Positions 3,001 through 6,000 of a stretch of 18,349 nucleotides of DNA are shown piece after piece. The stretch is from a virus (Duplodnaviria; Heunggongvirae; Uroviricota; Caudoviricetes). Within the stretch, counting starts at the first letter, position 1; every line of letters begins with the position of its first letter. The stretch lies in the IMG/VR virus record IMGVR_UViG_2654587685_000017, positions 1 to 18,349 of that record. One strand, written 5' to 3'. Made by a program: the position numbers.

Positions 3001-6000
3001 TGGCACTGAACCAGTGCGACACCATGTTTTTCTTTCCTGTGGCATCTGCAATCTGTTTTGCCGTTATCCCCGGGGCAGCGCGCGCATCACGAAAGTAAGC
3101 AATCAGCGGGGCCATCACATGCTGTTTCAGTGCCCTGCCCTTCGCCTCATACCCGGCATCTTTCGGACGATACGGCCCCTGATAATGTTCCGCGAACAGA
3201 ATGCGCTCTGTGGCGGGGAAATACGCCCGCAGGCTTTCCTTGTTGCATCCGTTCCAGCGTCCGGACGGCTTCGCCCAGATAATATGGTTCAGCACACTGA
3301 AGCGTTCACGCATCATGATTTCGATATCAGATGCCAGGCGATGACCACAGAACAGGTAAAGACTTCCGGCAGGTTTCAGCACCCGCCAGAACTGCGCCAG
3401 ACACTGGTCCAGCCACTTCAGGTAATCATCGTCGCCCTTCCACTGGTTATCCCAGCCCTCAGGCTTCACTTTAAAGTACGGCGGGTCCGTGACTATCAGG
3501 TCAACAGAATTTTCGGGTAGCGACCGGATAAATTCCAGGCAGTCGGCGTTGATTAACTCACAACTGGATATTTTTACAGTATTAAGCATGGATCATTAAG
3601 CCTGTCTCTGATAGGCTCATTCTGCTTTTGCGCAAAGCAGTGGGCCTGAGGTTTGCTTGTGAACCCAACGCATGAGCAGATGGCTGGTGGGTGCCCCTAA
3701 CACCCACCAGCCGCCCATTTACCACAAATAAAAAAGCCTTCACTGCGGAAGGCGTCTGTAACAACCGAACTGATAGTCTGCCAGACCCGCCATAACCAGC
3801 TGGGTCAGTATTAACTGGCAGCGTTCGCGTGAAAGGTAAGTATTCTGCGCTATCTCCCCGACTGTCGCCGGTTCGGTAACGCTTAATTCATTAAACACCA
3901 CTCTGGCGGTTTCTGTCATATCCTGCTGTTTTAGCATGTCTTTTTCCCTTTTCCGGTTAACGTGACACACCAATAACTCTTGTCGAAAAAGCCAGCAAGC
4001 TGAAAGAACGGTATTAATAACCACCAGCGAATTTATTGCGCTACTGTATATCGCGGACACAAAAAAACCACCTTCCGGTGGCTTCCTTGTGCGAAAAAAA
4101 CTTGCGTTTCGCCTCGCGATACAGCTTTGCGAAGCTTATACGGATTGAAGCAGTTTATTGATCAGTTTGCAACATTTTTCTCTGTAACAAAAGCCATGCG
4201 CATGGGGGCATATAACATAAATTCAGATACCCCCAACCATTGATCAATTCGGCGTCTGCACGTAACCAACGACCAATCAGGATGATCTGCATTTAACCTT
4301 TCGGCCATTTTCAGTTTGCTCATTCCCCGTCCTTCGTACCTTTGCCGGAGAACATTGATTAGCCCGGGATATTCCCCAAGCACCTCACTGATAACGCGAT
4401 CAATAATCAACGCCTCTGTGTCTGTACAATGTGACAACCAGCTCTTCTGCTTTCCTCTTGTCATATCCCGAAAAAATGCCTCAAGTTCCGGTTTTTCCAG
4501 CCCGGATTTCTTCATTCTGCGTAAAACCTCATTAACTGCTGTTTTCGTCAGCTTTTTCGAAACCAGTAACCGGTTAAACATATTTCCGGATTTACCCCCA
4601 CCGATATACGACCACCGCCCCCACATCCGTAATTTCCCCTGGATCCAGACTGCTTCCAGCGTGTTCAGGCGTAAATGTTCGCCGCTTTTGCCTGTAATTT
4701 CCGGATATATCATATTTACGCTCACTCACTCTCAATTTTGTAAATCTTCACACCCAGCCGTCCACCAGATACTGGCTGACCACGTACAATATTGATTTCA
4801 TCAAACTGCTCGTCATCAATGAGCACTCCCGCATGCGTCAGCGCATCCAGCGGTGCTTTCAGAATGTTGTCCAGGTCGCGACGACGCTTATCCGGTGGCT
4901 CTGCAATCACCTTTATCGCCAGCCTTCCGGACAGGCTTAATTTCAGCCGCTGCTGGCGAACAATAAGCGCCACAGCCCGGCGATAACGCTCACCGGCTTT
5001 TGATACAAAATATGTGCTGCCACGACGTCGCCAGTAGGTGTTCACCGTCGGCGGGTAAGGTAAAACCAAATCTATGAGCATCAGTCACCTCTTTTACCCG
5101 AGCACGCCGGTTGCAAAGGCGTGATCAAGAAAACGAAAAATTAAATCAACCTGGGAACCATGCTTTTCTTCGAACGCCAGCGGATCCGCATGAAGCTCGT
5201 TGTGATGCTCCCGACACAGCGGTAGCGTGAAAATATCGTGGGATTTTGTTCCCATTCCGCCCTGACCATGACCAATCAGATGATGAGGATCGTCCGCTGG
5301 CTTACCACAACACGAACACGGCTGTGTCTTTACCCAGCGTGTGTATTTCTCATTTACCCAGCGGCGACGTTTAGGTCGTTTCATGAAAGATTCCGGGGAC
5401 TCAGGATCAACGGCAATGCTGACCACCGTCTTTTCCTGTGGTGGGTTCTGTTGCTGGTGGGCGTGAGGCAGCGGCGCAAGATTTTTTGTGCGCTGTTTCA
5501 GTATGCTGGTGGCGGTCTGCTCTCCCGGTACGATGTCGCTTTCGCGGTACACCGAGCAGATTTTTTCCGCTGGTAATCCCAGCGAGCGACGTAATACCGC
5601 TTCCGGTAGCGCGTCCGCCACCTGATTGCGGACCGCCCACCAGGATAATTCAGCCAGAGATAATTCACGCTCCTGTGCGCCATTCATTGCGTGACGGATG
5701 ATGTCAATCATCCAGGCGGCCAGATTCTGTTGAGCAAGTTGATCCAGTGAATCAGATGTCTGCTCCCGCAGCTGGTTGTCGCAGTGCCAGCACAACACCA
5801 TCGCGCCGGTACCGTAACGGTGAATGACGGTTTCGCTGTGATGATAATCACCGTGTAGCCACTGGCAGGATTTCACGTGACGTAATAACCAGTCAGACAG
5901 TGCACCAGCGCCACCCGCAGCACGGATCACCCGCTCATCGCTGAAAAATGGCAGTAGTGATTTATCTTCCGCCAGCGGCTGGTGAACGGCAGGTACAACC

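Follow-up and report, generated by a model that had tools for sequence, protein, structure and literature searches.

The window analysed here is an 18,349-nt stretch of viral DNA, positions 1 to 18,349 of IMG/VR record IMGVR_UViG_2654587685_000017, which is the regulatory and late region of an Escherichia coli lambdoid prophage and is 100% identical to strain fS25a. On its minus strand, a Q-like antiterminator gene is followed by an intrinsic terminator (T1), a gene for a 65-aa winged-helix protein, a structured leader RNA, and a gene for an N6-adenine DNA methyltransferase of the M.EcoGII type. Our estimate is evenly balanced on the proposal that the last four elements constitute a conserved late cassette of enterobacterial lambdoid phages, which would keep the methylase silent until late lytic growth. 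We infer the role of the small protein within this cassette: tentatively, the leader would lock the translation start of the methylase, and the 65-aa protein would be a dedicated RNA-binding translational activator that evolved independently of Com of phage Mu, a possibility that we hold with more doubt than belief.

The cassette is evident primarily as a pattern of linkage. Across 40 species-level loci, drawn from 40 species-representative genomes (one genome per species), the covariance model of the leader, R1, gave exactly one match, directly after the small gene, in every locus, and a methylase gene, whether intact, truncated or fragmentary, followed the small gene in 35. The small gene in turn lay upstream of the methylase in all 77 viral contigs with enough upstream sequence. 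This linkage supports a functional connection of the small protein with the methylase. The initial annotation of this DNA had suggested a methylation-linked regulatory pair, and it is this part of the suggestion that survives, rather than the Pap/Dam-type switch that it evoked, with which a non-specific methylase does not fit.

The small gene, its leader RNA and the methylase

3740–3937, minus: gene for a 65-aa stand-alone winged-helix protein (phrog_331, function unknown); ATG at 3937, stop codon ending at 3740
3730–3753, minus: T2, or P0, hairpin GCCTTC-CGCAGT-GAAGGC (3753–3736), then TTTTTTATTT (T6)
3587–3729, minus: structured leader RNA, 142 nt, between the small gene and the methylase gene, ending with the methylase ATG (3589–3587)
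~3725–3716, minus: TGTGGTAAAT, possible promoter site within the 5' part of the leader
3682–3712, minus: hairpin P3, perfect 12-bp stem GGCTGGTGGGTG / CACCCACCAGCC
3590–3665, minus: long-range helix P7, GGUUCA-c-AAGC (3665–3655) with GCUU-aa-UGAUCC (3601–3590)
2540–3589, minus: gene for a 349-aa beta-class N6-adenine DNA methyltransferase, M.EcoGII family

The AlphaFold (AF2) model of the 65-aa protein predicts three helices and a beta-hairpin wing (predicted local distance difference test score 92.7), the arrangement of a winged helix-turn-helix (HTH) fold. The family is narrow, with 61 representatives among 1.84 billion proteins and 334 clusters at 90% identity, and its named sources are nearly all Enterobacterales, from Escherichia to Proteus, Erwinia and Plesiomonas. 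Within E. coli it is common, with 4242 copies in 2269 complete genomes, meaning that ~42% of complete genomes carry the gene, often as several copies, and in Shiga-toxin phages it sits between Q and stx. In 31 orthologues the amino acids of helix 3 (RCQLILTQLxMAG) are invariant while the codons vary freely, and therefore selection acts on the protein. A 106-aa open reading frame (ORF) extended to a GTG at 4060 was rejected, because the conserved start is MLKQxDMT with an AAGG-type ribosome site; the longer frame begins inside the T-run of T1, and its upstream part is not conserved as protein. In the Hfq-CRAC table for strain Sakai (Tree et al. 2014, Table S2), the only entry near the small gene is the Hfq-binding peak EcOnc49, antisense to the 3' part of ECs_1779, the small gene of prophage Sp9; it spans 1772764–1772808 of NC_002695 on the minus strand, equivalent to approximately 3805–3761 of the window on the plus strand, with an offset between genome versions being possible, and a possible explanation is an antisense RNA opposite the small gene.

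Only a few of the exposed residues (T45, Q46, R39 and the N-terminal MLKQxDMT) are conserved within the family, the remainder having diverged to as little as 41% identity. The isoelectric point is 4.7–6.8 in 16 of 18 members, and the net charge ranges from -5 to +3. An NCBIfam search returned nothing for the protein, and the Pfam matches among 20 family members were weak and generic, to DprA_WH (18/20) and TrmB (16/20). The best structural neighbours are ArsR, MarR and IclR repressors, and the top Foldseek matches include the N-terminal winged-helix dimerisation domains of S-adenosylmethionine-dependent methyltransferases. These dimerisation domains, the acidic to neutral charge, and the small set of exposed residues conserved while the remainder diverged would all suit a protein that acts through protein contact, with no nucleic-acid binding, with either the methylase as its partner, which it could chaperone, inhibit or target as a subunit, or a host protein for restriction or defence; class-beta methylases moreover act as dimers with a division of labour (PMC7544214). 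However, recombinant M.EcoGII is fully active by itself (PMC5778455), and the methylase is missing beside many of the small-gene copies in E. coli, hence we regard action by protein contact as unlikely.

R1, the covariance model of the leader, was built on a 27-sequence alignment and matches the window at 3729–3587 (125.7 bits, E=2.6e-28); where the methylase has been replaced, it matches no more than fragments. The same helices emerge in distant genera from both RNAalifold and single-sequence folds. In an unfitted MAFFT alignment 91.7% of cells are paired, against 88.4% after shuffling and 31–41% when the partners are slid, and compensatory double changes fall in 14 of 42 pairs, against 8.3 +/- 1.5 in shuffles, 0 of 500 of which reach the observed value; a model-fitted alignment of 46 sequences has 93.1% pairing and 20 pairs with double changes, all of these statistics being drawn from sequences related to one another and from a structure derived from the same sequences. 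Only this strand tolerates G-U pairs, as would be expected of an RNA of the coding strand. No family in Rfam 15 reaches its gathering score for the leader on either strand, and the sole minus-strand match within 3587–3729 is to 31 nt of P26 (15.4 bits against a gathering score of 36, E=1.6).

The conserved helices comprise P2 (AUGGGC with GCUCAU), P3, an inner hairpin (GGC-CAC-UGCUUU with AAAGCA-GUG-GCC) and P7. P3 folds at -33.7 kcal/mol (z=-4.6), and 8 of its 12 pairs covary. Across loci P7 reads AGGUCA-c-AAGCG with CGCUU-ac-UGAUCU, the last six nucleotides of which are -8 to -3 of the methylase AUG, and all five pairs of its inner sub-helix covary, being mostly AAGCG:CGCUU, but GGA:UCC in Proteus and Providencia and GGG:CCC in Plesiomonas. 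Thus, as in com-mom systems, an RNA structure pairs the translation start region of the methylase, through a helix that is weaker in the window; this start region has no canonical Shine-Dalgarno sequence. A GATC at 3591–3594 on the minus strand lies within P7 (UGAUC), and in 29 of 30 leaders a GATC occupies this place, 4–7 nt ahead of the ATG of the methylase; in Proteus and Providencia, the partner strand of this segment carries a GATC too.

Three other readings of the leader region were tried and set aside. A single fixed fold was not upheld, as the segment GGUCACAAGCG has three possible partners, namely the 5' CUGUGA, UUCGCUCAUG (with three-way covariation in A2) and the start region; these alternative pairings are a possible conformational switch. 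A 60-aa ORF over the leader (3764–3582) is at odds with the 1–2-nt indels in the leader alignment. The inverted repeat of P3 was also considered as a protein operator, but its stem varies freely with compensation while helix 3 of the protein does not vary, and the G-U pairs are confined to one of the two strands.

The gene beyond the leader encodes an N6-adenine methyltransferase, as had been annotated. The 349-aa product matches PF01555 (N6_N4_Mtase; E=4.7e-44, residues 29–340), and has an N-terminal DPPY (35–38) and a C-terminal FMGSG (310–314), the motif order of M.EcoGII-type enzymes, in which a central recognition domain separates DPPY from FxGxG. It is identical at 337 of 352 positions (96%) to the enzyme of phage 1720a-02, to which M.EcoGII, itself 349 aa and prophage-borne, is described as 'very similar' (PMC5778455), such that the likeness to M.EcoGII is an indirect one, by way of the 1720a-02 enzyme. 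Lysogens do not express M.EcoGII, the expression of which is deleterious (PMC5778455, PMC12707154). Judged by its sequence, the methylase of the window is of this non-specific, toxic type, rather than site-specific and Dam-like, which leaves no basis for a Pap-style GATC/Lrp switch.

The initial annotation had likened the small protein to PapI/FaeA, in which case it might combine with a Dam-like methylase as a methylation-dependent epigenetic switch. PapI is likewise a small winged-helix protein, and the GATC preceding the methylase ATG would also suit this reading. The resemblance fails in profile searches, the check that the initial annotation had itself put forward, in which neither the protein nor 20 family members matched Pfam FaeA (PF04703) at E <= 1, and PapI is not among the top structural matches. 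The methylase belongs to a non-specific family, neither a fimbrial operon nor paired GATC/Lrp sites are present, and the GATC is accounted for by P7, where GGUCA or GAUCA is the partner of UGAUC. We therefore consider a Pap-type switch very improbable.

The candidate late promoter and the two terminators

4162–4713, minus: Q-like late antiterminator gene, DUF1133 family; PGAP start at ATG 4713, longest ORF from GTG 4725
4144–4172, minus: candidate late promoter pR', -35 TTGCAA (4172–4167), 17-nt spacer, TGc and -10 TTCAAT (4149–4144)
4108–4158, minus: 51-nt element, candidate Q-utilisation or initial transcribed region, kept after DUF1133-type Q whatever comes next
4061–4081, minus: terminator T1, candidate tR', hairpin CCACC-GGAA-GGTGG (4081–4068) and T7 (4067–4061)
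3970–3999, minus: conserved upstream motif CTTGCTG-N17-TAnnTG, in the window TTGCTG (3998–3993) and TATTGG (3975–3970)

The gene upstream of T1 is Q-like, in agreement with its first description. Its product matches DUF1133 (E=2.9e-105), Phage_antitermQ at 31 bits (cut-off 26) and phrog_753, 'anti-termination protein Q-like' (E=1.6e-75), and it is placed after DUF968 and RusA at the end of the early-right operon, as is lambdoid Q. A promoter-like site at the end of the gene is the candidate pR', with a predicted transcription start near 4137. At equal position and spacing, EDL933 has TTGCTT-17-TTGAAT and phage 666R9 has TTGATT-17-TTCAAT, while a Providencia DUF1133 homologue (43% identity) is accompanied by a canonical TTGACT-16-TATAGT at the equivalent position. 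A terminator lies within ~60–80 nt of the promoter-like site at each DUF1133 locus compared, T1 itself being ~80 nt downstream. Phages vB_EcoS-473R12 and vB_EcoS-666R9, and other E. coli genomes, match in the 51-nt piece at 4158–4108 alone; in 666R9 this piece follows a DUF1133 Q, ahead of a different terminator.

The pattern scan reported the T1 palindrome on the plus strand only, and the minus-strand terminator was read directly from the sequence. The 86 nt at 4135–4050 fold at -36.9 kcal/mol (z = -4.5 against shuffles), this great stability arising because the A-rich 5' flank pairs with the U-tract too. Terminator-like patterns are not enriched in the window, with 22 sites against 20.4 +/- 4.8 in shuffles, hence the pattern alone proves nothing, and the functional case rests on comparison. 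A strong terminator of unrelated sequence ends 83–129 nt before the small-gene ATG in 35 of the 40 species-level loci. In megablast searches of phages and 5426 complete E. coli genomes, the small-gene module (~4038 to ~3700) was found behind at least four other types of antiterminator gene. In prophages with the same DUF1133 Q, the common sequence starts just after the Q stop codon, and in those with other Q types homology starts just after T1, near 4038–4029, which marks a mosaic boundary. At these junctions, every Q type brings its own unrelated strong terminator directly ahead of the common module; in JJ1886, a lambda-like pR' and pause element (TTGATT-16-TAAATT-TGCTCT-AACGAT) stand upstream of the equivalent terminator. 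From this comparison, T1 is best read as the tR'-type terminator of a late promoter.

T2, which the initial annotation had also proposed as a tR'-type terminator, differs from T1 in its distribution. In the window it comprises a 6-bp stem and U6, with the TGA stop codon of the 65-aa ORF falling in its loop, and it folds weakly, the 56 nt around it giving -8.9 kcal/mol and z = 0. A hairpin at the stop codon shows compensatory stem changes in 26 of 37 loci, with variants including GCCUUC/GAAGGC, GCCUCC/GGGGGC, GCUGCC/GGCAG, GUCGCC/GGCGGC and others, and synonymous variation is suppressed in the last codons of the small gene, which fits their role as the 5' arm. The hairpin is missing in Proteus and Providencia. 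Across relatives the hairpin is kept but the U-tract often lost, a strong tract being limited to the E. coli lineage and a few other loci (Salmonella, Pseudocitrobacter and one Citrobacter), and broken or absent in many others. This combination marks T2, on comparison of the loci, as a probable lineage-specific terminator, built upon a hairpin of wider conservation next to the leader. The tR'-type assignment is supported for T1, and T2 is probably a terminator in some lineages only.

The absence of enrichment, and the unremarkable energy of T2, are what would be expected were the terminators chance hairpins and the ORF a spurious call. Against this stand the conserved position of T1-type terminators, the compensatory changes in T2, and the protein-level selection and confidently predicted fold of the ORF product, which leave such an explanation barely credible. 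Direct reading, positional conservation, compensatory stems and fold together indicate that the two minus-strand terminators and the winged-helix ORF between them are real, as had been claimed.

Several observations touch the same interval. If the promoter is active in lysogens, a predicted ~80-nt RNA at 4061–4137 on the minus strand, in which a hairpin near the 5' end (GCUUCGC...GCGAGGC) precedes that of T1, would be produced constitutively, and would be the DUF1133-type counterpart of the short terminated pR'-tR' RNA, known as 6S RNA in lambda and StxS in Stx phages (PMC7547250). The Hfq-CRAC table for Sakai lists no peak for it, Rfam 15 has no known family for the T1 RNA, and a literature search on ECs1778-1780 for transcript evidence found no mention. 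In phiP27 (L002 2124–3353), a gene for a 409-aa GIY-YIG nuclease is inserted between Q and the terminator ahead of the small-gene module.

These elements suggest how the proposed cassette might operate. In the lysogen, the late promoter would fire, with its transcripts ending at T1, and transcripts from the weak promoter-like CTTGCTG-N17-TAnnTG would end at T2 in the E. coli lineage. Any methylase mRNA that escaped would be translationally closed by P7 of the leader, such that T1, T2 and the leader would impose three layers of silence on a toxic enzyme. Upon induction, Q-modified RNA polymerase would read through T1 and T2. The small protein would be made first, and would then open or otherwise license methylase expression, acting as a delay device as Com does for mom. 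The progeny DNA would be heavily methylated at N6-adenine (m6A) before packaging, and may thereby escape restriction in the next host.

Mosaicism and the possible role of the small protein

Intact methylase homologues (58–98% identity) lie at a near-fixed 143–155 nt from the small gene, with the spacer strikingly conserved. A viral scan and a protein search for distant relatives of the methylase returned, among the matches listed, only close enterobacterial ones. An obligate pairing within E. coli was nevertheless rejected. Set against the 4242 copies of the small gene are 2643 of the methylase gene and 1317 of an AraC-family gene in the methylase's place, meaning ~62% of small-gene copies precede a methylase and ~31% an AraC-family gene. 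The AraC-family gene replaces the methylase and most of the leader, just after P3 (L005 3300–3440, L006 3420–3560). It encodes a 237-aa regulator, which we take to be probably one of the prophage AraC-like regulators known from enterohaemorrhagic E. coli, and has its own TATAAT-type promoter; three tRNAs follow the gene. In phage PhiR5_1 (L004), STnc100 comes directly after the small gene.

These exchanges coincide with Chi sites, of which the one at the upstream edge of the small-gene module is:

4021–4028, minus: Chi octamer GCTGGTGG

The window contains 11 copies of GCTGGTGG in 18.3 kb (1662–18186), compared with 0.59 expected from shuffles. Seven of the 11 are on the late-transcription strand, and two flank the small-gene module. 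Several E. coli, Kluyvera and Buttiauxella loci retain the upstream copy, which is degenerate elsewhere. P3 carries both a Chi (3711–3704, minus) and a reverse Chi (3683–3690, plus), and while its Chi-bearing 5' arm is invariant in Enterobacteriaceae, its 3' arm varies. The recombination junctions in L004, L005 and L006 all fall at or just after the P3 Chi. Together, the invariant arm and the position of these junctions suggest selection for Chi itself, and a role for it in mosaicism.

The mosaic pattern also bears on whether the small protein acts on RNA or on DNA. Upstream of the gene, CTTGCTG and GAGTTA..TG..CAC are invariant and keep a 17-nt spacing throughout 35 loci that range from Escherichia to Plesiomonas, making CTTGCTG-N17-TAnnTG a candidate weak cassette promoter or regulator site. 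The small protein could hence be an ordinary DNA-binding winged-helix autoregulator on CTTGCTG-N17-TAnnTG..GTCAC, encoded by a moron that is expressed in the lysogen between T1 and T2, in which case its role would not be confined to the methylase, and the leader would regulate the methylase by itself, by way of RNA folding or ribosome access. Both this DNA motif and helix 3 (RCQLILTQL) are invariant across genera, terminator-gene-terminator is the classic moron layout (PMC4104026), the nearest structures are repressors, and ~31% of E. coli copies retain the small gene ahead of an AraC-family gene in place of the methylase. Yet the motif is a poor sigma-70 promoter, with G at the last -10 position, and was not called by the scan; only one arginine is conserved in the protein, which is acidic to neutral; the small gene never occurs without the leader in the species-level sampling; and the methylase never occurs without the small gene in the 77 viral loci. 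We consider autoregulation on DNA a doubtful, minority possibility.

The proposal of a late cassette with an RNA-binding activator has difficulties of its own, and the following observations weigh against it. Firstly, the small-gene copies that precede an AraC-family gene in E. coli stay intact, which may reflect a methylase-independent role of the protein, or else recent recombination. Secondly, Com is a zinc-finger RNA binder, whereas the small protein is a winged helix and mostly acidic, and an acidic to neutral composition is unusual for a 65-aa binder of RNA or DNA, calling for caution over nucleic-acid binding. Thirdly, we infer the late promoter, termination and read-through alike from sequence features, and the candidate pR' scored under the 9/12 threshold of the consensus promoter scan, its -10 TTCAAT being non-canonical in lacking the usual A at position 2. 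Fourthly, within the leader, P2 is without double-sided covariation, and the window's own P7 has one U-U mismatch, with the single-sequence minimum free energy fold favouring a competing local hairpin. Lastly, the invariant 5' end of the leader, CTGTGAAAATGGGCG, reads also as an extended -10 promoter (TGnGAAAAT), such that some of the 'leader' might function as DNA.

Prophage setting and known systems

The order of genes on the minus strand is DUF968, RusA, the Q-like gene, the small-gene region, the methylase gene, tRNA-Ile2, tRNA-Arg, a TerB pseudogene, DUF3927, STnc100 RNA and nanS-p, the last of which encodes an esterase and continues past the window edge. The two genes upstream of Q are:

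5094–6143, minus: DUF968 (6143–5094)
4722–5081, minus: RusA (5081–4722)

Between the methylase and the moron site, tRNA-Arg(TCT) and a tRNA with a CAT anticodon (tRNA-Ile in PGAP, ileZ-like) are on the minus strand (2237–2313 and 2415–2490); in phiP27 and other Stx phages, stx comes after these two tRNAs. STnc100 is a full-length Rfam match (132 bits, 1351–1540, minus) that closes with the window's strongest terminator, immediately ahead of nanS-p, and its position agrees with the 'moron site' small-RNA cluster of O157 prophages (PMC4104026). A second, sub-threshold copy (39.7 bits, 13812–14021, plus) abuts a perfect match to the small RNA DicF (76.7 bits, 13763–13814, plus), which indicates a Qin-like immunity/dicB region on the opposite strand. 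A sok antitoxin RNA accompanies hokD (113.5 bits, 6741–6916, minus), and downstream of it a sub-threshold isrK-like match (6501–6582, minus) ends in a strong terminator (6522–6505).

The terminators and the Q context are ordinary lambdoid biology, and what appears new is the module of small protein, leader and methylase, together with its RNA motif and a possible explanation for the silence of M.EcoGII. The module, the motif and a mechanism for this silence are not described in the M.EcoGII paper (PMC5778455), the class-beta review (PMC7544214) or a 2025 review of restriction-modification (PMC12707154), nor is the RNA in Rfam. M.EcoGII is a widely used tool enzyme, and the combination of Q-overridden terminators, a small protein and a leader that hides the start offers a testable explanation of why it is silent; if correct, the leader as lock and the small protein as key to a toxic, non-specific DNA/RNA adenine methylase would account for this silence in lysogens. 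The analysis also provides a candidate structured RNA absent from Rfam, a suggested role for the abundant phage family phrog_331, and a probable late promoter-terminator unit for the poorly studied DUF1133-type Q, which bears on how late and toxin genes are switched on.

This unit resembles the Q/pR'/tR' arrangement of lambdoid phages, in that a promoter-like site comes immediately after a Q-family gene, then ~80 nt on a strong intrinsic terminator, with the late genes beyond, and each Q type has its own promoter-terminator unit (PMC7547250). It differs in that its Q is of the little-studied DUF1133 type, with a weak match to the Q21/933W family model, its promoter has a non-canonical -10, its Q-utilisation element is a candidate one, and its predicted ~80-nt RNA is unrelated in sequence to StxS. 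The likeness to PapI/FaeA amounts to small size and a winged-helix fold, outside any Dam, Lrp or GATC-pair context and in a phage late region. The C proteins of restriction-modification systems share an arrangement with the cassette, in which the gene of a small HTH-type protein directly precedes that of a dangerous DNA enzyme and is transcribed together with it, such that the small protein could delay the enzyme's expression. However, C proteins are Xre-type HTH dimers that act on C-box operators to control an endonuclease, whereas the protein here is a winged helix for which Pfam and NCBIfam gave no C-protein match, the conserved cis element between the genes is an RNA structure, and there is no endonuclease.

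The closest parallel is the com-mom operon of Mu and its com-like relatives, in which, as here, a very small ORF directly precedes a broad adenine-modifying enzyme. The genes of com-mom are closely linked, unlike the 150-nt spacing between small gene and methylase here. In Mu-like prophages, com-like genes precede the non-specific methylases Hin1523 (in FluMu, as HI1522.1-Hin1523), Hia5 and Nma1821 (PMC3299994), and enzymes of the com-mom type shield phage DNA from restriction, harm the host, and are strictly late (PMC3299994, PMC12707154). The translation start of mom-type genes is held in RNA structure, which is relieved when Com binds the mRNA (PMC6483171). The small ORF, the leader that pairs the start region, and the toxic non-specific methylase are therefore common to both, with RNA binding by the small protein here being a proposed property. 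In the window's protein there is no Cys4 motif, and the searches with it gave no Com-related match. Furthermore, the phages here are lambdoid and Q-controlled, while those of com-mom are Mu-like and controlled by C, Dam and OxyR, and the enzyme here is a class-beta methylase, where Mu has Mom. Hence, given a winged helix rather than a zinc finger, the cassette may be a functional analogue of com-mom, standing outside that system proper; were the small protein an activator, lambdoid and Mu-like phages would have reached the same solution by convergent evolution.

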